Below, in pieces: positions 7,164 through 54,700 of a stretch of 64,000 nucleotides of DNA. The notes below the pieces were generated by a model. It was given only the letters and a program-made list of their open reading frames with translations. It did not search any database and was not told the origin of the DNA. The position numbers were made by a program, and so were the translations under genes. This DNA is from an uncultured bacterium (GTDB lineage Bacteria; Fermentibacterota; Fermentibacteria; Fermentibacterales; JCC-6), in assembly GCA_965371785.1 (NCBI GenBank), contig CBDUZS010000002.1:2362-66361 (forward strand), in the 5' to 3' direction. Each line of letters opens with the position of its first letter. The stretch's first letter is position 1.

Positions 7164-7170
7164 TACCTCG

Positions 7171-23472: not shown

Positions 23473-23473
23473 C

Positions 23474-30138: not shown

Positions 30139-30357
30139 CCGTTCCCGAATGCTTTTCTGGAACCCCCGGACATGATCGGACTATCTCCGGTTGACCGGGA
30201 AAGGTGAGTGAGATATTATTTCTCCGTGGCAATGACACCTAAAGAGAAACCGTTTTTCGCTGTAGCTGAAGGCTATTCCGGAGACGGTCTTTTTCATACC
30301 AGGGAACATATCCGAAGCAGTTCGAGAGGGGCATTTCTTGCCCTGAAGGGAGAGAGT

Positions 30358-30900: not shown

Positions 30901-31130
30901 CCCCACTGAGCGATCTCTATCCCGATTCCGAGAACGTAACCGCGGCCAGCATTCTGAAAGCGCTGCGAAAAAAACTGAAGCTCAGCTCCGCCATAGAAGA
31001 CACCGGCTTCGACAGGCTGATAACCTCTCCCGACATCAGCCGGCCGGGCCTCTGTCTTACCGGCTACACTCACAACTTTTTATACGAGCGGATACAGATA
31101 TTCGGCGAGACCGAGATCACCCTCCTGAAC

Positions 31131-31874
31131 ATGCTCGATCCGAAGCTGCGGAAAGAAGCTATCTCAAACGTGTTCCGGTTTCCAGTGAATTGCAGCATGG
31201 TTACGAAGGGCCTTGAACCTCCGCCCGAACTGCTCGAAGCCTCTCGCGATTCGGGGGCGGCTCTCTTCATCTCATCGAGGGACACAACACCGCTCATCCA
31301 TGATCTGGGAGACTACCTGACCGAGGTGTTTTCCCCGGTGGAATCGGTGCACGGCACGCTTGTCGACGTTTTCGGAGTCGGACTTCTCTGTACGGGTAAG
31401 AGTTCGATCGGGAAGAGTGAAGCGGTTCTCGGTCTCATGGAGAGAGGACACCGTCTCGTTGCCGACGACATGGTCAGGATTCGCAGAGTATCCGACAAGC
31501 TCGTAGGCTCAGGGGATACACTGATGAGCTATCACATGGAGATAAGGGGTCTCGGGATGGTTAACATCGCAGATCTCTTCGGTATCAGGTCCACAAAGGA
31601 ACGTCAGCAGGTCGACCTCGAAGTCAGGCTTCAGGCATGGTCGGAAGTTCAGAACCTCGATCGCACGGGGCTGTCTAAAACCGAAGCCAGTATACTCGAC
31701 GTATCGATTCCACTTATAATTCTGCCCGTGCTTCCCGGAAGAAACCTGTCACTCCTTCTCGAAGTGGCAGTTCTCAACCATATCCTCGACAAGAGGGGTA
31801 TGAACCCGGCAAGGAAGCTGAACAGGGCCCTGATCCAACGAATGACCGGAGAGAAACCCGAAAAGGAAGGCTAA
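31131..31874 (+). CDS. hprK: HPr kinase/phosphorylase
   Basis: Kinase domain with P-loop GVGLLCTGKSSIGKSE and LVADDMV. The HprK N-terminal domain (VTAASILKALRKKLKLSSAIEDTGFDRLITSPDISRPGLCLTGY...) is encoded in the same frame upstream, from ~30900. No ATG/GTG/TTG exists between the in-frame stop at 30795–30797 and 31131. The true start may be non-canonical (CTG at 30906, with GGGAG 10 nt upstream). Confidence 0.8.
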   Translation: MLDPKLRKEAISNVFRFPVNCSMVTKGLEPPPELLEASRDSGAALFISSRDTTPLIHDLGDYLTEVFSPVESVHGTLVDVFGVGLLCTGKSSIGKSEAVLGLMERGHRLVADDMVRIRRVSDKLVGSGDTLMSYHMEIRGLGMVNIADLFGIRSTKERQQVDLEVRLQAWSEVQNLDRTGLSKTEASILDVSIPLIILPVLPGRNLSLLLEVAVLNHILDKRGMNPARKLNRALIQRMTGEKPEKEG

Positions 31875-31877
31875 TCG

Positions 31878-32150
31878 GTGTTCAGCACGACTGTGACAGT
31901 GCCGAACAGGCTTGGCATACATGCAAGGCCGGCGGCACAGATAGTCAAGCTCGCATCAACGTTCCTGAGCGAGATATCCCTTGTCGTCGGACACGATCAG
32001 GTAAACGCCAAGAGTATCATGGGGGTCATGACCCTCGCAGCGGGCGCAGGCACTGAGGTCGGCATCAACGCTGACGGTTCGGACGAGCGGAAGGCAGTCG
32101 ATTCACTGGCCGATCTCTTCGAAACAGGCTTCGGGGAAGAGATGGTCTGA
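31878..32150 (+). CDS. ptsH: phosphocarrier protein HPr
   Basis: 90 aa. His15 context GIHARPA. Regulatory Ser46 context KSIMGVM. GTG start. Confidence 0.85.
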   Translation: MFSTTVTVPNRLGIHARPAAQIVKLASTFLSEISLVVGHDQVNAKSIMGVMTLAAGAGTEVGINADGSDERKAVDSLADLFETGFGEEMV

Positions 32151-37890: not shown

Positions 37891-38079
37891 ATGTTCGGAA
37901 GAATTGGACCAGTCGAGATAATCCTGATACTGATCGTTCTCCTCCTTCTCTTCGGTGCGAAGAGAATTCCCGAGATCGCCAGATCCCTGGGAAAATCACT
38001 GAGCCAGTTCAAGAGAGGCCTCAGGGACGTCGATATAGACAAAACAGGCGACGACAACGAGGATGAGAAGGACGCGTAG
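37891..38079 (+). CDS. tatA: twin-arginine translocase subunit TatA/E
   Basis: 62 aa. MFGRIGPVEIILILIVLLLLFGAKRIPEIARSLGKSLSQFKRG is the canonical TatA TM plus amphipathic helix. Confidence 0.85.
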   Translation: MFGRIGPVEIILILIVLLLLFGAKRIPEIARSLGKSLSQFKRGLRDVDIDKTGDDNEDEKDA

Positions 38080-38682
38080 ATGGCAACCGTCAGTTTCAGT
38101 GCCAGGGAGATCGACTGCAAGATAGTCTACTGCGGTCCAGGCCTTTCCGGTAAGACGACCAACGTCCAATGGATACACAAGACGATTCCGCAAGATGCCA
38201 GAGGTAAGCTCATATCCCTTGCCGCAGGCAACGAGAGAACTCTCTTCTTTGATTTTCTTCCCATAGACACGGGTGAGATCAACGGGTTCAAGTTAAGACT
38301 TCATCTGTACAGCGTTCCGGGGCAGGCCATGTACTCCGATAGCAGAAGGCTCATACTCCAGTGCGTCGACGGTATCATTTTCGTAGCCGATTCGCAGATC
38401 GAGAGAATGGAAGCAAACCTGGACAGCCTGCGCGATCTCAAGGAGAACCTTCGCCGTCAGAAGAGAAAGGGAGTCAGCCTTATTCTTCAGGCGAACAAGA
38501 GGGATCTTCCCAATATCATTACAACCGATGAACTCATTACAACTCTCAGGCTGAACAGGATTTCCTGCGTCGAATCCGTCGCATGTGACGGCGTAGGAGT
38601 TTTCGAAACCCTCCGCAAGGTCAGTCGCATGGTGATCGGAAGGCTCCGCAGACAGTTCATGAGCTTCGAGGGAAGGGCCTGA
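38080..38682 (+). CDS. mglA: MglA-family Ras-like small GTPase
   Basis: 200 aa. REIDCKIVYCGPGLSGKTTN (P-loop). TLFFDFLP. LHLYSVPGQAMY (catalytic Gln context). FVADSQIERMEAN. NKRDLPN. Near-collinear with Myxococcus MglA. Confidence 0.85.
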   Translation: MATVSFSAREIDCKIVYCGPGLSGKTTNVQWIHKTIPQDARGKLISLAAGNERTLFFDFLPIDTGEINGFKLRLHLYSVPGQAMYSDSRRLILQCVDGIIFVADSQIERMEANLDSLRDLKENLRRQKRKGVSLILQANKRDLPNIITTDELITTLRLNRISCVESVACDGVGVFETLRKVSRMVIGRLRRQFMSFEGRA

Positions 38683-40154
38683 TGGCACAGGAACCTCTCG
38701 TAGACCTTCTCCTGGTCAGACTGGGCCGTGAAGAGGAAAAAAAGCGGGTCAGGACTCTGCTCGTAAACGGTCTCGGGATGAGCGAGACCGAAGCCGATGA
38801 AGCCGTCGAGAATTCCCCTTCAGTTCTCAGAGAAGCAATTCCGATGGTCGAAGCCCGTGATATCCAGAAAAGACTCTACCCGTTTATCGACCTCCTTCCG
38901 CGGATAGACGAAACGACTGAACCGCCTCCTCCGAAACCCGAGGAACCGGCCAGGGAGGGAATCGAGGAAGAAAAGGAAGAAGAGGCGGAAGAGGACTTCA
39001 CTTCCGGAATCGATGAAGAACATCTCGAATTCGACATCCTGGCTTCTGGACCTCCGCCTTCGGATCCGGTCAGGAATAGTGATTCCGCTTCCTCGGAATC
39101 AGACGTCGAGCAGGACCTCATCCTTACCTCTGCCAAACAGGAAATGCTTCAGATCGATAGATGCCATGTCTGTGGCAGAACACCGACCGATGGCGAAAAG
39201 CTTGCGCCCTGCAGGGCCTGCGGCTCCCTGACCTGCCGTGATTGCTTCGATCGGGCGGCCCATGTCTGCGAGAAGTGCGCTACGGACGGCAAAGTAGTCA
39301 GCCACGCTCTTGCGGGAACTCCGGAGTACATCAGCAAGCATGATCATCATCTCGATTCCGATGCTCCCGAGACCGTTCAAGAGAAAGAGAAAGCCTCGAA
39401 ATCCGGTCTGATGAAGATCCTCGTTCCCGTCTGTATCCTGCTTGCTCTGGGAGCTGCGTTCTACTTCGTTGACCCCATGAATCTCTTTGCCGGTGATGAA
39501 CGGGAAGACAGCGGCACGGTTCCTCTCGACACGACGTTTGTAGATACGACCGCAGTCGACACGGTTGCTGTAACTCCGGATACGTCCGAAGTCGTCTCTC
39601 CGGACAGTCTGCAGATCCTCCCGGACACAATCCTGGTCGTCGAGTCCGTGAATCCCCTCGGTCTGACATCACTCACGCTGCCCGACAGTCTTGTTCAGCC
39701 GGATGTGGTTTACTCCATCGAGGTCGTCGAAAGATTCTCATCGAGAGAGATCGATATGATGAACGAGGAACTCATCATCATTGCCACTCCGATCGAGCAG
39801 TACGCAGCACTGTGCAATCTGACCATAGACAGACTCACACTCGTGAGAATTGATGGATACGTTGTGCTTGCCATGTCCGTTCTCCATCCCGAGGATAACA
39901 CGAACAGGTACAAATTCCTGAACTACATTGCTGGTTTTCTGTACTCCTCGGATGTAGACCAGTTCGTTTTCTATTACAGGGAGAACAGGTTCCAGAATAC
40001 CAGCATTCTCACGTACACCAACGATATATTCGGCGAACTACGGACGGCAACCAGCCCACAGAATTTCCAGATGTTCGCAGGCAGCCAGGGGGGCACAGTC
40101 TGGGAGTCAGTCTCCGGAGAATTACAGGACACTCTGACCGAAGCCGTGCAGTAG
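38682..40154 (+). CDS. hypothetical single-pass membrane protein with cytoplasmic zinc-ribbon (2×CxxC), translationally coupled to the mglA-like gene
   Basis: 490 aa. N-terminal ~75 aa resemble the ribosomal L7/L12 C-terminal-domain fold (VRTLLVNGLGMSETEADEAVENSPSVLREAIPMVEARDIQKRL). Acidic/Pro-rich linker. CHVCGRT...CRACGSLTCRDCFDRAAHVCEKC zinc ribbon. TM helix ILVPVCILLALGAAFYFV. About 230-aa extracytoplasmic domain. ATG overlaps the mglA stop (TGATG). Confidence 0.6.
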   Translation: MAQEPLVDLLLVRLGREEEKKRVRTLLVNGLGMSETEADEAVENSPSVLREAIPMVEARDIQKRLYPFIDLLPRIDETTEPPPPKPEEPAREGIEEEKEEEAEEDFTSGIDEEHLEFDILASGPPPSDPVRNSDSASSESDVEQDLILTSAKQEMLQIDRCHVCGRTPTDGEKLAPCRACGSLTCRDCFDRAAHVCEKCATDGKVVSHALAGTPEYISKHDHHLDSDAPETVQEKEKASKSGLMKILVPVCILLALGAAFYFVDPMNLFAGDEREDSGTVPLDTTFVDTTAVDTVAVTPDTSEVVSPDSLQILPDTILVVESVNPLGLTSLTLPDSLVQPDVVYSIEVVERFSSREIDMMNEELIIIATPIEQYAALCNLTIDRLTLVRIDGYVVLAMSVLHPEDNTNRYKFLNYIAGFLYSSDVDQFVFYYRENRFQNTSILTYTNDIFGELRTATSPQNFQMFAGSQGGTVWESVSGELQDTLTEAVQ

Positions 40155-42421: not shown

Positions 42422-43290
42422 AGGTTTTCTGCGATGACATGCTCCTGGGCAGAGGGCTCTCAACGCTCACTGTGAAGGCATACAGGACGGACCTGGAGAA
42501 ATTTCACACATGGTGTGACGGGGAAGTAACAGATAACTTCACACTCCCGAAACTCCGGGGATTCATCAGGCACGAAACGACCAGGGGACTGGGATCAGGT
42601 TCCATATCCAGAACGATATCCGCGCTGAGGACGTTCAGCCGGTGGCTCATGGAAACCGGCAGACTCGACAGCGATCCCGCAAGACTGCTGACCATGCCCC
42701 GGGTTCACAGGAACCTTCCCGGATTTCTCAGTATATCAGAGGTGACACAGGTCATAGAGAGCTATGACACGTCCACACTTCTCGGGATGAGGAACCGGGC
42801 TCTGGTCGAGCTGCTCTACGGAACCGGTGTAAGGGCATCTGAAGCGGCATCGGTCATGCTCATGGATCTGGACCTGAGCGGAAAACTGATGCGCGTACTC
42901 GGCAAGGGCAGGAGGGAGAGAGTACTTCCCGTAACGGGAAAAGCGATAGAAGCTCTGGAATCATGGCTTTCACGAAGAGGTGAATTACTCGGAACCTCAG
43001 AGGACCCGGGTACGGTGTTCATCAGCGTAAGGGGAAGGAAACTTGACCCCAGAGATGTTCGACGTATTGTTGCCATCGGTGTGAAGAAAGCTGCCAGAGC
43101 GGCGGGAGCCACACCGCATACGTTCCGACACAGTTTTGCCACACATCTTCTGGACAGGGGAGCTGATCTGAGAGCGGTACAGGACATGCTTGGCCACGCG
43201 AGTCTGTCTACAACACAGATTTATACACATCTTACCGCAGAGCGGCTCAGGAAAGCTTACAGGAAGGCACACCCCAGGGGGGAAGAGTGA
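42394..43290 (+). CDS. site-specific tyrosine recombinase XerC/XerD family
   Basis: MQKEDRGAIEVFCDDMLLGRGLSTLTVKAYRTDL. Catalytic R...HxxR...Y set (GVRASE, HTFRHSFATHLL, LGHASLSTTQIYTHL). Start overlaps the topA 3' end by ~28 nt. Confidence 0.85.
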   Translation: MQKEDRGAIEVFCDDMLLGRGLSTLTVKAYRTDLEKFHTWCDGEVTDNFTLPKLRGFIRHETTRGLGSGSISRTISALRTFSRWLMETGRLDSDPARLLTMPRVHRNLPGFLSISEVTQVIESYDTSTLLGMRNRALVELLYGTGVRASEAASVMLMDLDLSGKLMRVLGKGRRERVLPVTGKAIEALESWLSRRGELLGTSEDPGTVFISVRGRKLDPRDVRRIVAIGVKKAARAAGATPHTFRHSFATHLLDRGADLRAVQDMLGHASLSTTQIYTHLTAERLRKAYRKAHPRGEE

Positions 43291-46200
43291 AAACAGAAGG
43301 ACTTCTCGATTCTGACAGGAAAACGGTTCGAACGGATCGGCTACTCGTTCTGCTCACTGCCCTGATAGCCGCAGCTGTCTACATGTCAACGCTCGCATCC
43401 ACGGTCAGCTTCTGGGACAGCGGGGAATACATTACATGTTCATGGGTTGCAGGAGTTCCTCATCCTCCGGGTGTACCGCTTTTCGTTCTCAGCGGAAGGT
43501 TCAGCACGCTGCTCTTCTCATTCCTTCCCTCGATAGCCCAGAGAGTCAACCTGCTCTGCGCTCTTTCAGGCGTGATATCCATTGCCCTCGTATCCCGGCT
43601 CGTTCAGCGCTGGGCGCATCGGATGGGTTTCTCCTCCTCTACTTACAGACCCATGTCGATGCTTGCAGGTCTCCTTTCGGCATTCAGCTACAGTGTCTGG
43701 AGGAACAACAACGGCACTGAAACCTATGCGGTGGCACTTCTTCTTTCGATGATCATTCTCTGGGTTTTCGACCTCTGGCTTGTCCGGAGATCGCATGACC
43801 AGCCGGCAGGCAGACTGCTCCTGCTCCTGGGATATCTCATAACACTGTCCATAGCAAACCATCTCAGTGCGCTGATAGTCGTTGCGCCAATCACTCTTGT
43901 GTACGTTCACTACGCGGTCAGAAAGAAGACCAGGAGCTGGATGAAGCCAGGATTCGTTCTGACTTTCATTGGACTCATGGTCCTTGCGTTCAGCATCCAC
44001 CTCTACATGCCTATCAGAGCGGTCCAGGGACCCGAGATCAACGAAACGAACCCAGGCCAGTGGGAATCCTTCAGACAGGCCCTTGCAAGGGAGCAGTACG
44101 GTCAGGTCTCGATCTTCAGCAGGAAGGGTCCGTTCGGGGAGCAGCTGGCCCTCTACATGGAGTACCTGTCATGGCAGACGGGCAGGCCATCTGCATGGAA
44201 CAGCCTCCTGGGCCGGGGAGGCCAGAGGATCGGAACGGTCATCTGGGTTCTTCTTATGGCAGGTGTCGTCTACGGACTCATTACGCTTGGAGCCAGGCGG
44301 CCCGATTTGCTCCTGTTGATAGGATTCACATTCCTCATGGCCAGCTTTGCGTTCGTGGTGTATCTGAATTTCAAGACCGGACCCGAGGGCACTTCTGCAG
44401 GGGAAGTGCGGGAAAGGGATTACTTCTTTGGTGCATCCTTCGTTTTCTTTGCCATGCTGGCTTCCATCGGACTCGTCTCCGCTCTCAGGGAGCTCATCAG
44501 AAAAAGGAGGAGGAGGTACATCTGGGCTCTGATGCTGATTCCCGCAGTCAGCCTTGCCGTGAATTACCATCGATGCGACCGATCTGGTGATTTCATTGCC
44601 CACGACTACGGTGTTAACCTGCTCGAATCCTGCAGTGAAGGCGCCGTACTCATCACCAACGGCGACAACGATACTTTCCCGCTCTGGTTTGCCCAGGGCG
44701 TTCTGGGTGTCAGGAGAGACGTGATCGTGAGCAATCTCAGCCTCATGAACACTCCATGGTATACAGAGCAGCTTATCGAGCGCGATTCCCTGCTCCTGAG
44801 CTACGGCGCAACCGATCTCGTGGACTCCCTCCGGGCGATATTCATCTGGGGCCCCGATTTCTTCCATGTCGGGGCCGAAGCCCTTCCGGAATGGAGCAAC
44901 GCCGATAATCTCGTACTCAGGTCTACATTCGATCAGAAATGGCCATGGGCTGTCATATCCGAAGAATTTGCCGCAGTTGTACCCAACATGGGGCTGGGGT
45001 CACAGGGAGCGGTTCCAATGCAGGATCTTCTGCTCTTCGACATGATCAGCAATCAGTCCGTCCACGGGAGAGACATATACTTTGCCGGAACGGTTGCCAC
45101 CGACAACAGGGCCTACTTCCAGGATTACCTCGAAATGGAGGGCATAGCTTTTCACCTGGTCGATCACCCCGTCATCGAGGCAGTCAATTCTGAACGCGGC
45201 TGGGATCTCCTTGACAGCTACCAGTACACGGGACTCGACGATCCTGACGTATTCAAGGGCGATCAGGCCAGACAGCTGGCCAGGAATTACGTTTCGGCCT
45301 GTCACAGGCTTGCCTACCATCATATCGCAGCCGGTGAGCCCGAACAGGTAGCCAGGGCTCTCCAGATGGCAGAACAGATCATGATCACCATGCAGGATGA
45401 ATGGCACCAGATACTTCCCCAGCAGTCCCTTATAGAGGCAAGGCTTGTCGATGGTCTATATGGTCCGCAAGCCGCAATCGACACGATTTTCCTCCGCGCA
45501 GACAAGGTTTCTGCCTGGGCCAGCCGGACTGGAAACACCAGGATGGCAGGCGCCGCGATGGGCCTGGTGCAGATTTCCGAGGAGTTTCAGCAGGAACAGG
45601 CTTTCAGAGAGGTTATCGCGGATCTGGATAACGGATCCGTGGCCTCGGCCTGGCTTCGAATCGAAGTCGATCTCTCCTTCGGGAACTTCATCTCGGCCTG
45701 GAACGTCTACGCAGAGCTCGAAAGGGATCACCCGGACGATCCATTGCTGCCTCTCGTAGGCGACTTCCTCGAAACCGCAGCTTCCGGAATGAGTATTCAT
45801 ACGCGCCTGAACCTGACGAGAAGCGCTGTATTCACCGTTTTCGAATTCTACGACCAGGAAGTCCAGGACAGGTTCGTATGGACCGAAGAGATAGAACTCG
45901 AGCCGGTTCTCATGGCGGTCACGTCACACCTGGCGGAAGGCAGAATTCTGCCCGGCTGCGCGGCCGGGCTTCTACTCGCCGAGAGAATAGCCGACCCCTA
46001 CGAACGCGGCATGGTCGGCAGCTACATCGAATGGATTCTTTCCGAGCCCGACGGAGCGGTTGAACTTGCCGTCTGGTTCCTCCTAGAAGGAAACAGATCA
46101 TCCTGGGAATCGGTTGCCTGGCAGAGCATTCGAGTCGGCAACTACCCACTTGGATGGCTGGCTCTGAGTCTTTCCGGAAGTACTTCCACGGAAGCTCTGG

Positions 46201-46301
46201 AGAGTCTTCTCCACTCTCCTGACGCCTATCTGAACGGCATGCCGGAACCGGGCATGGCCAGAGGCGTCTACTCGTGGACGAACGCATTGATTGGAGACTG
46301 A
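43287..46301 (+). CDS. DUF2723/TMEM260-like polytopic membrane protein (GT-C-type glycosyltransferase-like) with large C-terminal TPR-like domain
   Basis: 1004 aa. N-terminal FWDSGEYI motif, characteristic of DUF2723. About 11 TM helices. About 600-aa soluble C-terminal region with TPR-like helical repeats. GTGA overlap with the recombinase gene. Confidence 0.7.
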   Translation: MKTEGLLDSDRKTVRTDRLLVLLTALIAAAVYMSTLASTVSFWDSGEYITCSWVAGVPHPPGVPLFVLSGRFSTLLFSFLPSIAQRVNLLCALSGVISIALVSRLVQRWAHRMGFSSSTYRPMSMLAGLLSAFSYSVWRNNNGTETYAVALLLSMIILWVFDLWLVRRSHDQPAGRLLLLLGYLITLSIANHLSALIVVAPITLVYVHYAVRKKTRSWMKPGFVLTFIGLMVLAFSIHLYMPIRAVQGPEINETNPGQWESFRQALAREQYGQVSIFSRKGPFGEQLALYMEYLSWQTGRPSAWNSLLGRGGQRIGTVIWVLLMAGVVYGLITLGARRPDLLLLIGFTFLMASFAFVVYLNFKTGPEGTSAGEVRERDYFFGASFVFFAMLASIGLVSALRELIRKRRRRYIWALMLIPAVSLAVNYHRCDRSGDFIAHDYGVNLLESCSEGAVLITNGDNDTFPLWFAQGVLGVRRDVIVSNLSLMNTPWYTEQLIERDSLLLSYGATDLVDSLRAIFIWGPDFFHVGAEALPEWSNADNLVLRSTFDQKWPWAVISEEFAAVVPNMGLGSQGAVPMQDLLLFDMISNQSVHGRDIYFAGTVATDNRAYFQDYLEMEGIAFHLVDHPVIEAVNSERGWDLLDSYQYTGLDDPDVFKGDQARQLARNYVSACHRLAYHHIAAGEPEQVARALQMAEQIMITMQDEWHQILPQQSLIEARLVDGLYGPQAAIDTIFLRADKVSAWASRTGNTRMAGAAMGLVQISEEFQQEQAFREVIADLDNGSVASAWLRIEVDLSFGNFISAWNVYAELERDHPDDPLLPLVGDFLETAASGMSIHTRLNLTRSAVFTVFEFYDQEVQDRFVWTEEIELEPVLMAVTSHLAEGRILPGCAAGLLLAERIADPYERGMVGSYIEWILSEPDGAVELAVWFLLEGNRSSWESVAWQSIRVGNYPLGWLALSLSGSTSTEALESLLHSPDAYLNGMPEPGMARGVYSWTNALIGD

Positions 46302-46836
46302 CTTGAAAATACATGCCACGACGGTAATAGGCATCGTGAGAAACGGCAGGGCCGCAATGGCTGCCGACGGCCAGGTTACGCTTGGCGACACCATCGTAAA
46401 GAATACCGCAATGAAGATAAGGAAACTGAGTAACGGAAGTGTACTGGTAGGATTTTCCGGTACCGGGGCGGATGCATTTGCGCTGGTCGAAAGACTCGAA
46501 GAAAAACTCGAGGCGTTCAGGGGGAATCTCCCGAGGGCAGCGGTCGAACTGGCCAGGGAATGGAGATCGGACAAGTACCTGAGAGAGCTCAACGCTCTTC
46601 TTGCGGCAATCGACAAGAACCATTCCCTCCTGATCGGAGGTTCAGGTGAAGTCGTCGAAGCCCCGGACGGAATAGTAAGCGTCGGATCGGGCCATGCATA
46701 TGCCCTGGCTGCAGCCAGAGCGCTGGACACACATACGAACATGACCCCTGCAAGAATCGCAAAGGAAAGCATTGCCATAGCCTGCGACATCTGTATCTAC
46801 ACCGGGGGAGACATCCAGGTGGAGGAAATATGCTGA
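46291..46836 (+). CDS. hslV: ATP-dependent protease subunit HslV (CodW-like N-terminal extension)
   Basis: ...KIHATTVIGIVRNGRAAMAADGQVTLG...GFSGTGADAF...GSGHAYALAAARAL. The catalytic Thr pair is preceded by IHA, as in B. subtilis CodW (SSFHATT). Start is TTG at 46291 or 46303. Confidence 0.9.
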   Translation: METDLKIHATTVIGIVRNGRAAMAADGQVTLGDTIVKNTAMKIRKLSNGSVLVGFSGTGADAFALVERLEEKLEAFRGNLPRAAVELAREWRSDKYLRELNALLAAIDKNHSLLIGGSGEVVEAPDGIVSVGSGHAYALAAARALDTHTNMTPARIAKESIAIACDICIYTGGDIQVEEIC

Positions 46837-48149
46837 AGGCCGACAAGCTTACACCCGTTGAGATAGTGCATTGGCTCGATCGACACGTCATCGGTCAGGC
46901 CGAAGCTAAGCGCACCGTGTCCATTTCTCTGAGGAACCGCTACAGGAGACGCCTGGTCGAAGAGCCTATGCGCTCTGAGATCTACCCCAGTAACCTGATC
47001 ATGATGGGACCCACGGGTATAGGAAAAACTGAGATCGCCAGAAGACTTGCCACCCTTGTTGGCGCACCGTTCGTGAAGGTCGAGGCCACGAAGTACACCG
47101 AGACTGGCTACGTCGGACGGGATGTGGAGGGTATTGTGCGAGATCTCGTAAGACAGGCCGTGAACCTGGCAGCGAGACATACCAGGAGCAGTAGGAAGGA
47201 GGACGCACAGAAGTCCTCTACGAGGAGACTGCTCGGTGTGCTCAGGAAGAACGGATACGAGAACCTTGCCGACCCCGAACTCAAGCGCCTTCTCGATTCA
47301 GGGAAACTGGACCATGTCGAGCTGGAGCTCTTTCTGACAGACGACATTGCCAGACTCGAGATATTCCCGATGATTCCAGGTGCCGGCTTCGACTCCACCG
47401 CGGGAGAAAACCTCAAGAAGGTGCTGGGAAAGATGATGGGCGGGAAAAGGAAAAGGACAACTCTCAAGGTTACGGAAGCAAGGGAGAAGCTCTTCGAAGA
47501 GGAGATGGGAAGGCTTCTGGACTCCGACGATTACATCGACAGAGGACTCGAGCTCGCCCAGGAAGAGGGAATCATCTTCATCGACGAAATCGACAAGATC
47601 ATTGGCTCAGAAGGCGGGAGTGGTCCCGATGTGTCTCGCCTGGGTGTCCAGAGGGATCTCCTGCCGCTTGTCGAGGGTTCAACGGTGCAGACGCGTTACG
47701 GTCCGGTCAGAACCGATCACATCCTTTTCATTGCAGCAGGCGCGTTTCATGGGTCCAGCCCATCGGATCTCATACCCGAGCTCCAGGGACGTTTTCCTCT
47801 GAGGGTCTCACTGGACCCTCTCAGCGAGGAGGATCTCTTCAGGATACTCACTGAACCCGAGAGCTGTCTTCTGAGGCAGTACACATGCCTTCTCGAATCA
47901 GACGGTGTCGCGCTAAGGCTCGACAGGGGGGCATCACGAGAGGTTGCATCGGTTGCCAAAAGACTCAACGAGGCAACGGAGGACATCGGGGCCAGGAGGC
48001 TCAGACCGGTTCTGACATACCTGTTGGATGAGTATCTCTTTGGCGCACCTGATCTTGTACGCGGGAAGGTCAGGATAACGAAAGCGATATCCAGGGCTCG
48101 CCTTTCGGGGCTTGTTGAAACCTCCAATGAAGGCAATTATATACTCTGA
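46830..48149 (+). CDS. hslU: ATP-dependent protease ATPase subunit HslU
   Basis: LTPVEIVHWLDRHVIGQAEAKR. Walker A MMGPTGIGKTEIARRLA. I-domain. Sensor-2 GARRLRPVL. ATG overlaps the hslV stop. Confidence 0.95.
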   Translation: MLKADKLTPVEIVHWLDRHVIGQAEAKRTVSISLRNRYRRRLVEEPMRSEIYPSNLIMMGPTGIGKTEIARRLATLVGAPFVKVEATKYTETGYVGRDVEGIVRDLVRQAVNLAARHTRSSRKEDAQKSSTRRLLGVLRKNGYENLADPELKRLLDSGKLDHVELELFLTDDIARLEIFPMIPGAGFDSTAGENLKKVLGKMMGGKRKRTTLKVTEAREKLFEEEMGRLLDSDDYIDRGLELAQEEGIIFIDEIDKIIGSEGGSGPDVSRLGVQRDLLPLVEGSTVQTRYGPVRTDHILFIAAGAFHGSSPSDLIPELQGRFPLRVSLDPLSEEDLFRILTEPESCLLRQYTCLLESDGVALRLDRGASREVASVAKRLNEATEDIGARRLRPVLTYLLDEYLFGAPDLVRGKVRITKAISRARLSGLVETSNEGNYIL

Positions 48150-48179: not shown

Positions 48180-48758
48180 ATGCACAGATCGGGAAACGAA
48201 GTTGCCTACAAGATCGTATTCTACGGTCCGGGTCTTTCCGGAAAAACGACAAACCTCAGGGGAATCAGGGATTTCATAGCTCCGGAGAACCGCGGTCGCC
48301 TGGTCACGCTCTGCACGCGGGGTGAGAGAACCGTGTTCTTCGATTTCCTTCCGATCAACTTCGCAAACATTGCCGGAACCCGGATCAAGCTGCATCTCTA
48401 CTCCGTACCCGGCCAGGCCTACTACGCGCTCAGCCGTCGTGTGATACTCGATGGCGTCGACGGGCTCGTCTTCGTGGCCGACAGCCAGTTGGAAAGGTCC
48501 GATGCCAATCTCGACACGATGGACGATCTCGATCACAACCTGCAGTCGTACGGGCTCAGACTCCAGAGCATCCCACTTGTCCTCCAGTTCAACAAACGCG
48601 ATCTTCCGGGAATAACTGACGTCGAAACCATGAACATGGATCTCAACAGGAATGGCTGGCCAACCGTCGAATCGGTTGCACTCGGAGGTCATGGTCCCGC
48701 CGAAACCCTCAAAATCATCTCCGCTATCATGGCCAGACGTCATGTCAGCAAGGGCTGA
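48180..48758 (+). CDS. MglA-family Ras-like small GTPase, second paralog
   Basis: MHRSGNEVAYKIVFYGPGLSGKTTN. TVFFDFLP. LHLYSVPGQAYY. FVADSQLERSDAN. NKRDLPG. GGAG 5 nt upstream of ATG 48180; the track start at 48162 is also possible. Confidence 0.8.
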   Translation: MHRSGNEVAYKIVFYGPGLSGKTTNLRGIRDFIAPENRGRLVTLCTRGERTVFFDFLPINFANIAGTRIKLHLYSVPGQAYYALSRRVILDGVDGLVFVADSQLERSDANLDTMDDLDHNLQSYGLRLQSIPLVLQFNKRDLPGITDVETMNMDLNRNGWPTVESVALGGHGPAETLKIISAIMARRHVSKG

Positions 48759-50940
48759 GGGCTCAAAGAAAACAAATACTGCATACGTAACCTTCATCTT
48801 CCTTATCGTGTGCGCCGCATTCTTCTTCAGAAGCTGGTTCGCCTCTGATATCCTTCCTCCACCCGGGCGAATGCAGGGAGAAACAACCCAGGCATACCGG
48901 TATTCACGCATGATCTCGGAAGGTGAACCCGTTCCATCCACGGATATCATGGTGATGCATCCGGAAGGCATGAACACGGGCGAGAACTCAATTTTCGAAG
49001 AGTACATCGCCGGGGGGATTCACGCCCTCATCGGTGGAGATTTCAACACTTTCATGAGGTTCTTCAGCATCTTCTTTCCGCTGCTCGCCATTCCAGGGCT
49101 CATCCTGTGGATGCAAAGGGGCGGGATTCCCATGCGAAGCGCTCTTCTGGGGGGAGCTGCTTACGGGATTCTCCTGCCGGCACTCCTTCGTACGAGAGGG
49201 GAGTCTCTTTACAGGGAAACGGTTGCCCTCCCTCTTCTCGTCTGGATGGGATGGGCGGTGGAGTCTGCGCTGGCCACGGGAAAAAAGGCTCATGCTGTCA
49301 CATCCGCTCTGCTTCTTTTCGCAGCACTTGCAGCCTGGAAAGTTACCGGGTTCATGTCCGCCTTTCTCTTCTTCTACCTGCTCTACCGCTCCTGCAGGCG
49401 AAAGGATGTTTCTCCGTTCCTTGCAGGAATGCTTGCGGCAACACAGATACTGGCTTCCCTTTTTCTCTCGCACATGAGGCATGATTTCGCGATTTTATCT
49501 CCAGCAACGGTGCTGGCGTTCTTCCTGCTGCTCTCGATATTCCTCAGGAGGTCGTACATCCCATGGGCAGGCCTGCTTCTGGCACTGGCTGCGGGACTGA
49601 CAGGTTCCTCGAGCACCGGGCATCTGGGTGCGGTCATCACGGCAAAACTGAGGTTCTTCTTCTCTCACCCCTCGGATCCTTCTCTCCTCGATCCAGACGC
49701 CAGGCTCTTCTGGGTCTCCGGATACACGAGCCCATCACCGGGGAATATCATTCTGCTGTTCGGGCTCCCCATTCTCATCGCAGTCTCCGGTATGCGCAGG
49801 TTCGTGAGTGAGCATGGGAGAACACTGCTGCTGTGGTTTCTCCCCATGGCATTTGCCGGCTACCTCTTCTTCGACAGACTTCACGTCATGCTCGCAGTTG
49901 CCCTGATCCCTCCGATTGCACTCGTAATGAAAAGGTACTGGAAACCTGTTGTTGTTTTACTCCTGCTTGCACTTCAGACGATCTTTGTCATTGCATTGGC
50001 GAGGGGCATCGACAGTGCCGGTCTCGAGACCGGCAGCTCCGGATCTTTGCTTCGTGATGATGAGCTGGACTCGCTTTTCGAATGGATAGACGACTACACG
50101 GAGCCCGGTGACGCCTTCCTCAGCTTCTGGCATATCTCCGGCCTTATATCGGCATACGCGGAACGCCCCGTGGTTACCCATACATTCTTCGAAAACGAGA
50201 GCAACAGAAGGACGATCGTAGAATACGCCGAACGAACGTATCAACCCGAGGACAGTCTGCTTGTATTCATGCGCATGCATGACGCAGATTACTACGTGTA
50301 CCAGGCGGATTTCATACTGGACAGGTCATCGGCAGGACTCCTGTACCTTTCCGGGCTCACGGAAGTCCCCGATAACTGCGTTGCTCTGAGGATGCACTAC
50401 GCACCGGAAACGCTTGATTCCCTCATGCTCGTATTCCAGGGGGCCTCGCTTCGGGTCTTCGGCCGCGGCGATGACTCAGCGTACATTCTTCCACAGCCCC
50501 TTTTCAAAATCAGGTACTACCCGTTCTTCAGTGATTACGATGCTGCAATGTCTGCTCTTCTCTTCCCTGGTGAGACGGCATGGAACCTCGCCTGGGAAGG
50601 GCGGGAGACCGCCGAACCTGACATGGTATCCGCAGCCCTGCTTCTGATTTCAGGCTCGGGAGCCATCCCCGAAGACGCAATCGGTATTCTCCAGGAACTG
50701 GTCATGTTCCATCTCCAGAGAGGATACGAAATGGAATACCTCGAAGAGGACTTTCTTGTGTATCTTCACTACTACGGGCCGGATCCTGCCATAAGACTGG
50801 ATCTGGCAAGGCTCCTTGTTTCGGAAGGACTGCTGGAACGTGCTGCAGTACAGTACCGAAAGGTGCTCTCTGAGGATCCTTCCGCAGTCCAGGCAGCCAT
50901 CGAGCTCGAGCAACTTATGGCGGAGGGCATTTCGGAATGA
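48742..50940 (+). CDS. polytopic membrane protein (GT-C-like) with C-terminal periplasmic domain and TPR-like tail, translationally coupled to the mglA paralog
   Basis: About 730 aa. At least 11 TM helices. Soluble C-terminal ~330 aa ends in helical repeats (ARLLVSEGLLERAAVQYRKVLSEDPSAVQAAIELEQ). ATG 48742 overlaps the GTPase gene 3' end by 17 nt. Confidence 0.5.
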   Translation: MSARAEGSKKTNTAYVTFIFLIVCAAFFFRSWFASDILPPPGRMQGETTQAYRYSRMISEGEPVPSTDIMVMHPEGMNTGENSIFEEYIAGGIHALIGGDFNTFMRFFSIFFPLLAIPGLILWMQRGGIPMRSALLGGAAYGILLPALLRTRGESLYRETVALPLLVWMGWAVESALATGKKAHAVTSALLLFAALAAWKVTGFMSAFLFFYLLYRSCRRKDVSPFLAGMLAATQILASLFLSHMRHDFAILSPATVLAFFLLLSIFLRRSYIPWAGLLLALAAGLTGSSSTGHLGAVITAKLRFFFSHPSDPSLLDPDARLFWVSGYTSPSPGNIILLFGLPILIAVSGMRRFVSEHGRTLLLWFLPMAFAGYLFFDRLHVMLAVALIPPIALVMKRYWKPVVVLLLLALQTIFVIALARGIDSAGLETGSSGSLLRDDELDSLFEWIDDYTEPGDAFLSFWHISGLISAYAERPVVTHTFFENESNRRTIVEYAERTYQPEDSLLVFMRMHDADYYVYQADFILDRSSAGLLYLSGLTEVPDNCVALRMHYAPETLDSLMLVFQGASLRVFGRGDDSAYILPQPLFKIRYYPFFSDYDAAMSALLFPGETAWNLAWEGRETAEPDMVSAALLLISGSGAIPEDAIGILQELVMFHLQRGYEMEYLEEDFLVYLHYYGPDPAIRLDLARLLVSEGLLERAAVQYRKVLSEDPSAVQAAIELEQLMAEGISE

Positions 50941-51752
50941 TAGAATTCTGGAAGATGAGCGGTGCGGGTAACGATTTCATTTTTCTGAGCAACTTCGACG
51001 GAGCTCTCGACGGTGTCCTCACGAAGGAATTCATCAGCTCCGTGTGCAGAAGAAATGCTTCGGTTGGTGCTGACGGGTTGATAGAGCTATCGAACGATCC
51101 GGATACCGCTTTTCGAATGAGGTACTGGAACAGAGACGGCATCTCCGCCGCCATGTGCGGCAACGGCGGCAGATGCGCGTGCGTTTTTGCCGAGAGGATG
51201 GGAATACTCGAGGATGCAGGCCGATTCACTTTCCGCTCGGATTCAGGAGTTCACACCGGAGAGATTACTTCCGATTCGACTGCCAGGATATGGCTGACGG
51301 ATCCTGTTACCGTCTTTCTGGGGAAGAACCTTGACTACGGAGGCAGGTACACGGTTTCTTACGTCGTTGCGGGAGTCCCGCATGCCGTCCTGTTTACCGA
51401 CGGTCCTGATGACCCTGAATTCGATAGATTCGCAGAGGTTCTCAGAAGGCACGAAGAGTTTCAGCCGGGAGGGGCAAACGTTGATTTTGCGTTTATCACC
51501 GGCCACAATTCCGTAACTCTCCGCACCTTCGAGCTGGGTGTCGAATCGGAGACTCTCGCCTGCGGCACGGGTGCGGTAGCGGCCGTGTTATGCGCCCGGG
51601 AACTCTTTCCCGGCAGGCTTTCCCTGCCGGTCATGGTCAAAGTCAGAAGCGGCCTTGTGTTGGAAGTCGGTCGGGACGAGAAGGGCTGGTGGCTCATGGG
51701 AGAGGCCAGAATTGTTTACCGGGGGTTTCTTGAAGCCATCCCCGTTACTTGA
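50937..51752 (+). CDS. dapF: diaminopimelate epimerase
   Basis: MIEFWKMSGAGNDFIFL N-terminus. Second catalytic Cys context (ETLACGTGAVAA). ATGA overlap upstream. Confidence 0.9.
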   Translation: MIEFWKMSGAGNDFIFLSNFDGALDGVLTKEFISSVCRRNASVGADGLIELSNDPDTAFRMRYWNRDGISAAMCGNGGRCACVFAERMGILEDAGRFTFRSDSGVHTGEITSDSTARIWLTDPVTVFLGKNLDYGGRYTVSYVVAGVPHAVLFTDGPDDPEFDRFAEVLRRHEEFQPGGANVDFAFITGHNSVTLRTFELGVESETLACGTGAVAAVLCARELFPGRLSLPVMVKVRSGLVLEVGRDEKGWWLMGEARIVYRGFLEAIPVT

Positions 51753-51793
51753 CAGGGAAGCGAGGACATACCATCTACACGCGATTGACCGGA

Positions 51794-51869
51794 GCGGGCA
51801 TAACTCAGCCGGCAGAGTGTCAGCTTCCCAAGCTGAATGTCGCGGGTTCGATTCCCGTTGCCCGCTCCA
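51794..51869 (+). tRNA. tRNA-Gly (anticodon CCC)
   Basis: 76 nt, GCGGGCATAACTCAGCCGGCAGAGTGTCAGCTTCCCAAGCTGAATGTCGCGGGTTCGATTCCCGTTGCCCGCTCCA. Hand-folded: 7-bp acceptor stem (GCGGGCA/TGCCCGC), D-stem ACTC/GAGT, anticodon stem TCAGC/GCTGA with loop TTCCCAA, T-arm GCGGG-TTCGATT-CCCGT, discriminator T, encoded CCA. Confidence 0.9.
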
Positions 51870-52051
51870 TTCTTTTCCTGTTCCTGCTGCTTACCACTCC
51901 TCTGCTTGCTGATACCGGGGGAGGCAGTTCAGACGCATGGGCTATCCGCTCGGGTTATGCGCCATCTTCTTCAGCCGATGCGGTCTTATGGAGGCTGCAC
52001 CTCTACTGTCTTCTCGATGAAGGACTCGAAGAGGAACCCGATCTCGACCTG

Positions 52052-52501
52052 ATGATAAGAAATTTGAAAGCCGGGGACGTCTACGCCCTGATCACGGTAG
52101 TGAGCGAACTGGTCAGGAAGGGACGGCTCTCGGACGCACGGGCATTCATGGAGGGCAGGGGAGTGCTCATCCCGGCCACGAGAAGGGATCTGGCCATCGC
52201 ACTCGCATGGTACGGCAGGTTCGAGATTCTCGATGCCCTGGAATACCGCTCGGATCCTCCGCCTGACCTCGAGGGCGATACCTACGAAGCACAGATATCC
52301 GCCCTGATGGTCATGGGCTGGATGGAAACATCGCCTGACGGCTTGTTCCATGGTGATAACCTTGCAGGAGTGAGAGATATAGAACTTGCCGCGTCCGGAT
52401 TACTGGGGTTGCCGGTCGAATGGAGCTGGGACTGGATCGCGATCAGCGAACTCGATCGCCTCTTCACCTCCGGTTCGATAGAGAGAGACACCGTCAGGTG
52501 A
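52052..52501 (+). CDS. hypothetical protein (start uncertain)
   Basis: Open frame continues from the tRNA through 52501. First canonical start after the tRNA is ATG 52052 (MIRNLKAGDVYALITVVSELVRKGRLSDARAF...). The upstream in-frame segment encodes a signal-peptide-like stretch (ILFLFLLLTTPLLADTGGG) with no ATG/GTG/TTG. Confidence 0.3.
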   Translation: MIRNLKAGDVYALITVVSELVRKGRLSDARAFMEGRGVLIPATRRDLAIALAWYGRFEILDALEYRSDPPPDLEGDTYEAQISALMVMGWMETSPDGLFHGDNLAGVRDIELAASGLLGLPVEWSWDWIAISELDRLFTSGSIERDTVR

Positions 52502-52521: not shown

Positions 52522-53109
52522 ATGAGCCTGCTTCGCAGAGCAGAGGAATTGAGGGAACGCGTTCCCCTTGCCCCGGCTCTCGTGACATGGGTACGTCTTC
52601 TCATCCTTCCGGTTGCAGCCATTCTCGCTTCCGCGGGGAGGGAGCCCATCCTTGTTTTCTGGCTCGTGTTTGCTGCTTCACTGTCAGATTACTTCGATGG
52701 ATGGCTTGCCAGAAGGCTGAAGAAAGTATCGTACGGGGGCAAGATTCTCGACTTCATTGCCGACAAGTTCTTCCTCAGCGTGATGTTCCTCGTTCTCGGC
52801 AGAACCGGTGCGATAGACACCACAGCCTCCGCCATCCTTGCCGCATACCACCTTCTGATAATGCTGGTAACCGCCGTTATATCATGGAGCGTGTCCAAGC
52901 CGGTGGTCGCAATACCGACCGGGGAGAGAGTGGTTCTTATATTCAGCTACATGCTGGTCGTGGTTTCCGCGGGAAAACTCGCATTTCCAGGGAAGGGCAT
53001 CTTTCATACACTGGGCAGTGTCGGTTCCATCCTTGCCGTATGCTCGGTTTTCTTCGGCATTATCAGTTACCTCAGGGTAACGAGAAGACTGCTTGTGAGG
53101 TTCAAATGA
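52522..53109 (+). CDS. CDP-alcohol phosphatidyltransferase family protein
   Basis: D-x2-D-G-x2-AR-x8-G-x3-D signature. Sequence shows SDYFDGWLARRLKKVSYGGKILDFIADK. Five to six TM helices. ATG 52522 (MSLLRRAEEL...). Confidence 0.8.
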   Translation: MSLLRRAEELRERVPLAPALVTWVRLLILPVAAILASAGREPILVFWLVFAASLSDYFDGWLARRLKKVSYGGKILDFIADKFFLSVMFLVLGRTGAIDTTASAILAAYHLLIMLVTAVISWSVSKPVVAIPTGERVVLIFSYMLVVVSAGKLAFPGKGIFHTLGSVGSILAVCSVFFGIISYLRVTRRLLVRFK

Positions 53110-53792
53110 TACTTTGCGTCCTGTACTCACTGTTGCTGGCTTTCATCTCATTGTCACCGGGTGAGCTCGAGATCGCTGGAAACCTGCCCGAAGCAGGGCT
53201 TGCATGGCAGGAGGATGGCTCTCTCGACGGACAGTCCCGTGTGCTCTGCAGGCTTCTCGAAGAAGCCCTTTACGCCGGACACGGCAACAGGGCAATGATA
53301 CTGATGGGCGATCTGCAGCACTTCGGAGCAGAGGACGATCTGATCGATTTCTGGTACGCGAGGCTTGCCTGGATCTGTGGTCTAGAGAACATGGCGGCGG
53401 AACGGCTGGAATCCTTTGCCGGTGACGACTGGCTCGGGTACAGGGCTCGTGGAATGGCTCACATAATGCGAAGGCATCCCGAAGAAGCAATCCCCGAGCT
53501 CGAACTCTCCATTGCACGTGCCGGGAGCATACGTCGGAGATTCTATTCGGTCATCGATCTATGCTGGGCCAACCTGGCAGCGGGAAACACTTTCGAATCG
53601 ATACGGATTGCCACCTTCCTGGTCGACAGTTTTCCCTGTGAGGGACTGCCCCGAATCATACTCGCGGTCTGTTACCAGGAATCGGGACGTTACGCGTCTG
53701 CAATGATGATGCTGCAGAACACTGCCAGTAATTCGAATTTTGGAGCCGGCCCCCGGAGCATGGCAGCCGATCTCCTGAGAGATTACGAGTGA
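53106..53792 (+). CDS. hypothetical secreted protein with TPR-like helical repeats
   Basis: ATG 53106 overlaps the upstream stop (ATGA). N-terminal signal peptide MILCVLYSLLLAFISLS. Helical repeats (ARLAWICGLENMAAERLESFAG...AMMMLQN). Confidence 0.5.
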   Translation: MILCVLYSLLLAFISLSPGELEIAGNLPEAGLAWQEDGSLDGQSRVLCRLLEEALYAGHGNRAMILMGDLQHFGAEDDLIDFWYARLAWICGLENMAAERLESFAGDDWLGYRARGMAHIMRRHPEEAIPELELSIARAGSIRRRFYSVIDLCWANLAAGNTFESIRIATFLVDSFPCEGLPRIILAVCYQESGRYASAMMMLQNTASNSNFGAGPRSMAADLLRDYE

Positions 53793-54700
53793 AAAGCAGG
53801 CTGATCTCGAGAATCCTTCGTAAGTCAAGATCGCGGAAAGCCCTGATTGACAGAGAGATGCTCCACTTCCCCGATGTTCTCGATTCACCGCTGAAGGTAG
53901 CAGTATTCTCAGCACGGAACAGAGAGGATGTCTGGGCGGCTCTGTTTCTGATGCACACACTCCAGAAGAACTTCCCCGAAGCAGCGCATTCCCTCATCTG
54001 CCGTGAAAGGGATGGCGAGCTCGCGGACATGCTCGGCTGGCTTCCGGATTTGATTTTCTACGGTGATTCACCCATTGCGGCCACACCCGAGATAAGGGAG
54101 AAACTCGGGAAAGAGGCCGTGTTGTTCTATCCCTATGCCACAATGAACGAGGAAGATGCCGGATTCATCATGGATACGGGTGTCGGAGTGTGTGTCTCCA
54201 CCGCAAACGATCCTGTTGTGAACCTGTCGGTCCGTATCGAATGCTCGCGCCAGCCGGAAGCTCTGTACTCGATGTGTGATATTCTTCGATTGAAACCGGA
54301 CAGGGGCTGGACGCCCTCGATTCCATCGACGTATACCGAACGAGCAAGCGCCATTCTCGCACCCGTCTCAGGAAGAGCGCTGCCCTACATCGTGGCCACG
54401 ACCGCGGCCGCTAACATCATGGAGAAAAACAGATGCGAGATTCCCGTCAGGATGATCGTTGTCGAGGGCAAGCGCAAAGAGATAGCCGATATCACGAGAG
54501 GGATCATGGCTGCAGTGGTCGGGGGAGCTTCTGCAGTAGTGACAACCGACGAATGGCTCTGGCTGAAGGCACAGGCTCTCGAGGTTCCCACCGTGGGTCT
54601 CGATCGTCGCGGCATCTTCCCCGACTGGGGAACGGAACCGGCTTCCACCGAAGGAGAATTCCTTCTGCAATGGGCTGATCTGCTCCGCAGAGGATGGTAA
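53789..54700 (+). CDS. divergent glycosyltransferase family 9-like protein
   Basis: C-terminal half resembles the GT9 donor-binding region (ADITRGIMAAVVGGASAVVTTDEWLWLKAQALEVPTVGL, cf. xxNDSGPMHLAAALGxPxVxLFG). The N-terminal SLGD motif is not conserved. GTGA overlap upstream, 7-nt overlap downstream. Confidence 0.45.
   Translation: MKSRLISRILRKSRSRKALIDREMLHFPDVLDSPLKVAVFSARNREDVWAALFLMHTLQKNFPEAAHSLICRERDGELADMLGWLPDLIFYGDSPIAATPEIREKLGKEAVLFYPYATMNEEDAGFIMDTGVGVCVSTANDPVVNLSVRIECSRQPEALYSMCDILRLKPDRGWTPSIPSTYTERASAILAPVSGRALPYIVATTAAANIMEKNRCEIPVRMIVVEGKRKEIADITRGIMAAVVGGASAVVTTDEWLWLKAQALEVPTVGLDRRGIFPDWGTEPASTEGEFLLQWADLLRRGW

Follow-up and report, generated by a model that had tools for sequence, protein, structure and literature searches.

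A 64,000-nucleotide (nt) stretch of DNA from an uncultured bacterium of the phylum Fermentibacterota (GenBank assembly GCA_965371785.1, contig CBDUZS010000002.1), here called the window, carries a gene for an MglA-family GTPase, mglA2, whose 3' end overlaps the start of a gene for a large membrane protein, here called GT-C after the glycosyltransferase type to which we assign it. An earlier note on this DNA, made from the letters alone, had read the pair as one of two instances of a functional pairing between a GTPase and the membrane protein encoded next to it. We find that mglA2 and GT-C are further members of known families and that their gene order is a lineage-specific trait. The reading we favour, with a probability of about 0.6, is that they are real, co-expressed genes with a lineage-specific conserved adjacency and no demonstrated functional link. 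The 17-nt 3' overlap and all coordinates and sizes reported in the earlier note proved correct. The elements of mglA2 are as follows (aa, amino acids).

48180..48758, + strand: mglA2, a 192-aa MglA-family small GTPase, paralog 2
48225-48248, + strand: P-loop GPGLSGKT of mglA2 (aa 16-23), matching GxxxxGK[ST]
48327-48332, + strand: intrinsic Arg finger and G2 Thr of mglA2, R50-T51, aligning with M. xanthus R53-T54
48402-48416, + strand: G3 motif SVPGQ of mglA2 (aa 75-79), with Val, Pro, Gly and the catalytic Gln retained
48591-48602, + strand: G4 motif NKRD of mglA2 (aa 138-141), fitting [NT]KxD
48742..48758, + strand: mglA2/GT-C overlap, 17 nt, with GT-C in the +1 frame

The open reading frame (ORF) of mglA2 runs from an ATG at 48180 to a stop at 48758, with GGAG 7-10 nt 5' of the start. 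Searched against the PDB, its product matches M. xanthus MglA (E 7e-54) and T. thermophilus MglA (E 4e-52), both over 181 residues, while the Arf-like proteins Arl8/Arl10 score just 2e-4. Group 1 of the MglA family is marked by the P-loop, an intrinsic arginine beside the G2 threonine, TVPGQ and a G4 of the NKxD type (PMC4316618, Wuichet & Sogaard-Andersen 2015). The R50-T51 pair of mglA2 is kept in every ortholog sampled, and its G3 motif reads SVPGQ against the TVPGQ of Group 1—a Thr-to-Ser change present in both Fermentibacteria paralog clades described below. In a database search the mglA2 orthologs show 66-96% identity and at least 285 bits, and all source-named matches are Fermentibacteria; below this group, scores drop sharply to canonical MglA (~52% identity, 207 bits). 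Judged by these motifs, mglA2 is a Group-1-type MglA GTPase with intact nucleotide-binding and catalytic residues, and it probably encodes an active MglA-type switch. Its earlier identification as a second MglA-family GTPase is upheld by the Group-1 motifs, by the match to M. xanthus MglA and by its position in the GTPase tree.

The other MglA paralog of the window lies 10.1 kb upstream, close to the 10 kb given in the earlier note, and is 50% identical to mglA2.

38080..38682, + strand: mglA1, a 200-aa MglA paralog 1; PDB MglA match E 2e-63; phylum-wide orthologs

Orthologs of mglA1 found in a database search are 69-99% identical, and the next matches 53-57%. We built a neighbour-joining tree of the two paralog clades and canonical MglAs with 200 bootstraps. 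Each paralog clade is recovered in 200/200 bootstraps, and the split between mglA1 plus mglA2 and canonical MglA in 165/200. Both paralog clades share derived residues in or beside switch II, namely F74L, T78S and V83A in M. xanthus numbering. The more divergent of the two is mglA2, with a mean distance to canonical MglA of 0.88 versus 0.71 for mglA1. Because of the bootstrap support and the shared derived residues of switch II, we conclude that mglA1 and mglA2 are phylum-wide sister paralogs, which arose by duplication no later than the base of the phylum. On the question of clades raised by the earlier note, this tree places mglA2 with mglA1 beside canonical MglA, and the search scores set it with MglA and not with Arf/Ras.

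The second gene of the pair, GT-C, has the following parts.

48742..50940, + strand: GT-C gene, a 732-aa STT3/DPY19-like glycosyltransferase with TPR tail
48742-50055, + strand: 13-transmembrane catalytic module of GT-C (aa 1-438), from the AlphaFold2 model
48880..48882, + strand: Glu47 of GT-C in external loop 1, candidate catalytic acid/base, invariant in 43 Fermentibacteria sequences
49189..49218, + strand: external loop 2 motif of GT-C, R150-x-R-G-E-S-L-Y-R158-E159, as seen when profile A3 is aligned in HMMER with 7zlg_A and 8i9p_Lh
49876..49878, + strand: Arg379 of GT-C, aligning with CeDPY19 Arg471, the second polyprenyl-phosphate-binding Arg
50056..50490, + strand: periplasmic alpha/beta dome of GT-C (aa 439-583), from model and alignment; 26 Asp plus Glu versus 9 Lys plus Arg
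50491..50937, + strand: C-terminal TPR-like helical tail of GT-C (aa 584-732), at least seven helices at 590-727, predicted periplasmic

The GT-C frame contains an ATG at 48742, taken as its start, and ends at 50940; the start codons of the pair are backed by orthologs opening MHRSGNE.... A longer version starting at 48652 (762 aa) was rejected; elsewhere the frame opens 12-110 nt before the conserved ATG. An AlphaFold2 model computed on 43 Fermentibacteria homologs has a predicted local distance difference test score (pLDDT) of 90 and a predicted template-modelling score (pTM) of 0.86. Compared with the PDB by Foldseek, the model finds eukaryotic STT3 first (8age_A, E 1.6e-14, template-modelling score ~0.6), CeDPY19 next (E 1.9e-12, 0.61/0.66), and then archaeal AglB and bacterial PglB (E to 5e-7); matches to PMT and ArnT are much weaker (E 1e-3 to 7e-2). 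A PDB sequence search with the single GT-C sequence returned TPR noise only, and an untrimmed profile was swamped by TPR; the family profile trimmed of TPR (A3), which was used instead, matches STT3 at 6e-22 and CeDPY19 at 9e-18 in HMMER. GT-C itself stays below the gathering score of the Pfam Dpy19 family (PF10034), with 22.6 versus 27.2 bits, whereas 9 of the 10 distant (~30% identical) homologs tested pass this cut-off at 40-75 bits, nearly all of them with TPR. For the tail of GT-C, the TPR assignment comes from a weak Pfam TPR_14 match and from Foldseek matches to designed TPR proteins. Homologs of GT-C are ~50% identical across Fermentibacteria (Aegiribacteria, Sabulitectum, Fermentibacteraceae), and NCBI, where it names them, calls them 'hypothetical protein'. 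At E <= 0.001, an exhaustive HMMER search with GT-C retrieved 587 sequences, each standing for a cluster at 50% identity, with a gap in score between the Fermentibacteria clade (>650 bits) and the best outsider (229 bits, 33% identity). By its modelled fold, the product of the second gene is a 13-transmembrane GT-C glycosyltransferase of STT3/DPY19 type. What had been described as a polytopic membrane protein of ~730 aa is a protein of 732 aa with 13 helices in the pLDDT-90 model, and its description as GT-C-like with a TPR tail agrees with the AlphaFold2 fold, the Foldseek results, the Dpy19-scoring homologs and the profile matches.

Proteins of the DPY19-like type with TPR are widespread in uncultured bacteria (loci L004, L005, L072, L073 and L074-L152). 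A GT-C gene of the PMT_2 type with TPR adjoins the DPY19-like gene in two of the four loci examined individually (L005 and L072). Among the papers listed in our literature searches, none describes a bacterial DPY19 homolog.

Glu47 of GT-C is at least 90% conserved across the wider family. Its place in the loop and its distance from the Tyr-Arg that comes next make it the probable equivalent of the catalytic CeDPY19 Glu71 or STT3 Asp47. In external loop 2, CeDPY19 Arg211 aligns with R150 and R219-E220 with R158-E159, the latter inside a shared RExFAxPF motif, while the Glu of the STT3 D-N-E motif aligns with E159. R150, R158, E159 and R379 are all invariant in Fermentibacteria. Arg211 and Arg471 are the residues with which DPY19, an enzyme that needs no metal, stabilises its dolichyl-phosphate leaving group (PMC10154233). 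The position of the STT3 WWDYG motif is taken by FWHISG in the dome of GT-C, and the D-N-E metal site of STT3 by Y-R-E, with the first Asp gone. Because of these two replacements, it appears unlikely that GT-C has N-glycan oligosaccharyltransferase activity.

The predicted cytoplasmic segments of GT-C consist of 26% Lys/Arg versus 8% in the periplasmic loops, with the N-terminus inside and the positive-inside rule obeyed. Cytoplasmic exposure amounts to ~34 residues, whose mean column conservation is 0.41 versus 0.78 for the periplasmic loops, and the N-terminal tail is variable and not conserved. No transmembrane helix follows helix 13, and the dome and the TPR tail are acidic, which together place both in the periplasm. 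The TPR tail is therefore out of reach of a cytoplasmic GTPase, and little conserved docking surface is left.

To describe the adjacency we scanned one genome per species, which gave 63 loci, 61 of them with upstream sequence; all title-named loci are Fermentibacteria. An mglA2 ortholog (59-82% identity) lies directly 5' of the GT-C gene in 61/61 loci. The earlier note had asked whether the pair is conserved, and had named a GTPase grouping outside the MglA clades and an adjacency unique to this genome as outcomes that would speak against it: mglA2 lies within those clades, and the pair recurs throughout the Fermentibacteria loci. The gene on the other side of GT-C, dapF, is as constant a neighbour as mglA2, being found 3' of GT-C wherever downstream sequence suffices. 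In 41 of the 60 interpretable loci an ATG for GT-C is available inside mglA2, with an overlap of 17 nt in 33 loci, 20 nt in 7 and 23 nt in one. The remaining 19 loci, mostly Aegiribacteria, have a spacer instead of an overlap, of 27-76 nt in 18 and of 210 nt in one. Where the two genes overlap, they are likely to be translationally coupled. On the 5' side of mglA2 stands hslU, except in L037, L043, L048 and L069 (Ca. Fermentibacter daniensis). In L037, L043 and L048, hslVU is absent from the site and a gene for a TMEM260-like GT-C protein is directly 5' of mglA2; in L069, a short contig, only the TMEM260-like gene is visible beside mglA2.

We also considered a fusion of mglA2 with GT-C by frameshift, which is topologically possible given the +1 frame and the cytoplasmic N-terminus. 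It was dropped because there is no fusion-length homolog among the matches listed and because the Aegiribacteria-type loci have spacers. In L067 (Ca. Sabulitectum silens MJAN01000006.1, ~5950-8024) the GT-C gene looks disrupted, as the C-terminal 300 residues alone align in one frame; the gene may be a pseudogene, or a frameshift or an assembly error may lie behind this.

The pair sits in a string of envelope and housekeeping genes, all on the same strand, that extends over ~29 kb. Nearly all junctions in the string overlap or are at most 30 nt long, and promoter- or terminator-like sites within it show no excess over shuffled sequence; we infer that the string is co-transcribed. About 25 kb of it is collinear in Aegiribacteria (L070) and Sabulitectum (L071), unrelated housekeeping genes included. 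The collinear order is hpf, hprK, ptsH, ptsI, a sugar nucleotidyltransferase gene, two GT4 genes, Hpre_diP_synt_I, a small gene, tatA, mglA1, the gene for a ~470-aa protein (490 aa in the window), topA, xerC, the TMEM260-like gene, hslV, hslU, mglA2 and GT-C, with dapF after them. Four features of this string are the following.

38682..40154, + strand: 490-aa single-transmembrane protein downstream of mglA1, with 1-nt overlap; cytoplasmic N-terminal part with 8 Cys
43287..46301, + strand: TMEM260-like (DUF2723) GT-C protein, 1004 aa, between xerC and hslV; Pfam PF11028 2e-32
46291..48149, + strand: hslV-hslU protease genes, directly 5' of mglA2 with a 30-nt gap
50937..51752, + strand: dapF (diaminopimelate epimerase), sharing 4 nt with the end of GT-C

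The reading we favour accounts for the pair as follows. mglA2 and GT-C would be co-expressed from one long operon, with translational coupling where they overlap, and the link between them would most likely lie in their joint expression from a gene order inherited as such. MglA usually acts on type IV pili or MreB, and mglA2 would serve such cytoplasmic polarity clients without docking on GT-C. Fermentibacteria are rod-shaped diderms with no flagella, with type IV pili and with mreBCD (PMC5030696). With these pili and mreBCD in the phylum, it is economical to read one or both paralogs as conventional cytoplasmic polarity switches. GT-C, for its part, would work in the periplasm, where it most likely moves a sugar from a polyprenyl-phosphate donor to a periplasmic or envelope acceptor, probably independently of metal, as DPY19 does. 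Its TPR tail probably serves to bind a partner or a protein acceptor. That the acceptor is a protein is plausible, since polypeptides are what the closest structural relatives of GT-C glycosylate and since TPR tails are protein binders.

A direct connection would take a different form: MglA2 in its GTP-bound state would bind the cytoplasmic face of GT-C, possibly that of the TMEM260-like protein too, and would switch, position or gate periplasmic glycosylation. We consider this rather unlikely, though several observations speak for it and weigh against our preferred reading. The adjacency holds in all 61 loci and is intact in the four loci without adjacent hslVU, so that the pair has survived the sole rearrangement seen, the relocation of hslVU. 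In those four loci mglA2 is flanked on both sides by GT-C genes, one TMEM260-like and one DPY19-like. An overlap of 17-23 nt exceeds the 1- or 4-nt overlaps usual in this operon and is nevertheless kept in 41/60 loci, and the mglA2 and GT-C families have the same phylum-restricted distribution, with a sharp drop in score outside it. In a coupled MglA/MglB module the gene for MglB stands no more than four genes from mglA; Pfam scans of the flanking genes and of the major ORFs in the window gave no Robl_LC7 match, the mark of MglB (Roadblock/LC7), which leaves mglA2 without an obvious canonical partner nearby; MglB was likewise not found among the neighbours in loci L001, L002, L070 and L071. 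A precedent is the actinobacterial conservon, whose fixed operon combines an MglA-family GTPase with a membrane protein (PMC4316618), and a flat cytoplasmic face of the GT-C transmembrane bundle could still bind a GTPase. Against the direct connection stand the ~34 cytoplasmic residues of GT-C, poorly conserved and including a variable N-terminal tail. The mirror-tree partial correlation between mglA2 and GT-C distances, with hslU and dapF as controls, is -0.03 and reveals no specific covariation; the method is crude, so this null result is weak negative evidence. Outside the phylum, tblastn at E <= 1e-3 detects an MglA-like ORF within 4-5 kb of the DPY19-like GT-C gene, as far as flanks are available, in 0/83 loci (4 looked up singly and 79 from a metagenome scan with alignment A4; 67 with at least 700 nt upstream), whereas the same search detects one in 61/61 Fermentibacteria loci. 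Within the string, unrelated genes are equally collinear and overlaps are the norm, and the Aegiribacteria-type loci separate the two genes by spacers of 27-76 nt and, in one case, 210 nt. A published neighbourhood survey describes the gene contexts of Group 1 MglA as ones that 'vary widely' (PMC4316618), and its text contains no word starting 'glycosyl' or 'TPR'; none of the papers listed in our literature searches deals with MglA in Fermentibacteria. The earlier suggestion that a molecular switch is coupled here to envelope glycosylation drew no support from any test run, and direct coupling of the GTPase to GT-C is unproven and somewhat disfavoured.

A broader proposal, that throughout the phylum each MglA is dedicated to the next-downstream membrane protein (mglA1 to the 490-aa zinc-ribbon protein, mglA2 to GT-C), strikes us as very doubtful. 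In its favour, other genera keep both pairs, each junction is an overlap (1 nt at mglA1, 17 nt at mglA2), and the GTPases are sister paralogs (165/200) with shared derived residues. The 490-aa protein and GT-C, however, show no similarity (E 0.66) and differ in topology, and therefore the 'repeated pattern' is two different things. A sizeable cytoplasmic domain is present in the 490-aa protein only, and this domain, unlike GT-C, could be an MglA partner. Moreover, the two cases lie in one collinear block, where repetition is not statistically meaningful. The inference of the earlier note from repetition to functional pairing consequently does not hold up: the partners are unrelated, ~25 kb around them is collinear and overlaps are the norm, and the same claim is also opposed by the little conserved cytoplasmic surface of GT-C, by the missing covariation and by the 0/83 count outside the phylum. 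At the other extreme, the ORFs or their overlap could be chance features, as long antisense shadow ORFs are present. This has next to no probability and is refuted by the strong homology of both products, the conserved starts, the high-confidence fold and the 61/61 conservation.

Some results hold irrespective of the link between the genes. A protein everywhere called 'hypothetical' emerges as a predicted DPY19/STT3-like GT-C with a periplasmic TPR tail, from a broad bacterial family in which no member is known to have been studied, and the recognition of two ancient sister MglA paralogs in Fermentibacteria, neither with mglB nearby in the examined loci, is of value for annotation. More would follow if MglA2 were a dedicated switch that docks in its GTP-bound form on the DPY19/STT3-like enzyme, perhaps also on the TMEM260-like protein, and sets the place and time of periplasmic protein glycosylation, which we hold to be distinctly unlikely. 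If true, it would be, to our knowledge, the first prokaryotic module of a Ras-superfamily GTPase and a glycosyltransferase, and the first functional handle on the bacterial DPY19-like family. It would also extend MglA-type switches beyond motility and polarity to envelope glycosylation, in an echo of the eukaryotic small GTPases that organise membrane-bound biosynthetic machinery.

Further features of the surrounding genes deserve mention. The TMEM260-like protein has a long C-terminal helical region (L037 copy: 2080-5346). The cysteines of the 490-aa protein form four CxxC motifs, zinc-ribbon-like, in its cytoplasmic N-terminal half, and the protein has a weak L7/L12-C-like match. The tatA gene (62 aa, 37891-38079) abuts mglA1 with zero gap, and the trio of tatA, mglA1 and the 490-aa protein gene is kept in Aegiribacteria (L070) and Sabulitectum (L071). 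Genes for hpf, HPr kinase, HPr and Enzyme I are grouped at 30208-33922 with no gene for Enzyme II (EII) nearby, which suggests a regulatory phosphotransferase system (PTS); other genera have this hpf-PTS block ahead of the mglA1 region too (L070, L071). The longest xerC-like ORF, 42103-43290 from a TTG at 42103, overlaps topA by 319 nt, and its true start is probably much later because orthologs are ~300 aa long (L070, L071). Past dapF, on its 3' side, Pfam finds nothing in three conserved ORFs, 51749-52501 (whose N-terminus has a hydrophobic segment), ~53109-53792 and 53789-54700, which lie around a CDP-alcohol phosphatidyltransferase gene and ahead of genes for a GT9 heptosyltransferase and polA. 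Farther upstream, GT2 and GT4 glycosyltransferase genes are densely clustered at 15831-27173, with large ORFs without Pfam match among them (18232-19848, 23456-24274 and 24190-26358); this is probably an envelope polysaccharide locus, and genes for a histidine kinase and for a sigma-54 response regulator come after it (27170-30138). Near the beginning of the window are genes for a CotH-kinase-domain protein (1104-2705, - strand) and a gingipain-like Peptidase_C25 with a propeptide domain (4534-6828, + strand).

Among known systems, mglA2 is closest to the MglA proteins of M. xanthus (MXAN_1925) and T. thermophilus (PDB 6hjh, 5ymx, 3t12), single-domain Ras-superfamily GTPases of the same length that align with it end to end and share the P-loop GPGLxGKT, the Arg finger beside the G2 Thr (ERT), xVPGQ and NKRD. 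It differs from M. xanthus MglA by an N-terminus three residues shorter and by the clade-specific changes C13Y, G65A, V176P and L191H (M. xanthus numbering), and from canonical MglA in forming a long-branch clade confined to the phylum Fermentibacteria. The experimentally studied orphan MglAs SofG and Bdellovibrio MglA resemble mglA2 in having no adjacent MglB. SofG, which is extended at its N-terminus, reportedly has bactofilins as partners, and the reported partner of Bdellovibrio MglA is a cytoplasmic TPR protein, unlike mglA2, where the sole TPR nearby is predicted to be periplasmic. Both are MglA-family GTPases that are functionally important without an adjacent MglB (PMC4316618).

For GT-C, CeDPY19 (PDB 7zlg/7zlh/7zli) shares the 13-transmembrane fold, the C-terminal alpha/beta dome, RExFAxPF, the two aligned Arg residues and the absence of a D-x-D metal site; at ~14% identity, GT-C differs in being bacterial and periplasmic and in its TPR tail, which is absent from DPY19. 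STT3, AglB and PglB provide the best Foldseek and profile matches, and the external loop 2 Glu and the dome core align; in external loop 1, FDDRTWHPLG of STT3 aligns with TDIMVMHPEG of GT-C, the segment around D68-P74-G76. Unlike STT3, GT-C has FWHISG in place of WWDYG and Y-R-E in place of D-N-E. TMTC1-4 and the bacterial PMT_2 proteins with TPR likewise combine a membrane module with extracytoplasmic TPR repeats after it, but GT-C belongs to a different GT-C subclass. The closest functional precedent for the locus as a whole is the actinobacterial conservon (CvnA-D), in which the genes for an MglA-family GTPase and a membrane protein belong to the same fixed operon (PMC4316618). The conservon differs from the mglA2 locus in having an MglB homolog and a histidine kinase, and its GTPase differs from mglA2 in belonging to Group 2, with no intrinsic Arg, with GTPGQ and with an altered G4.

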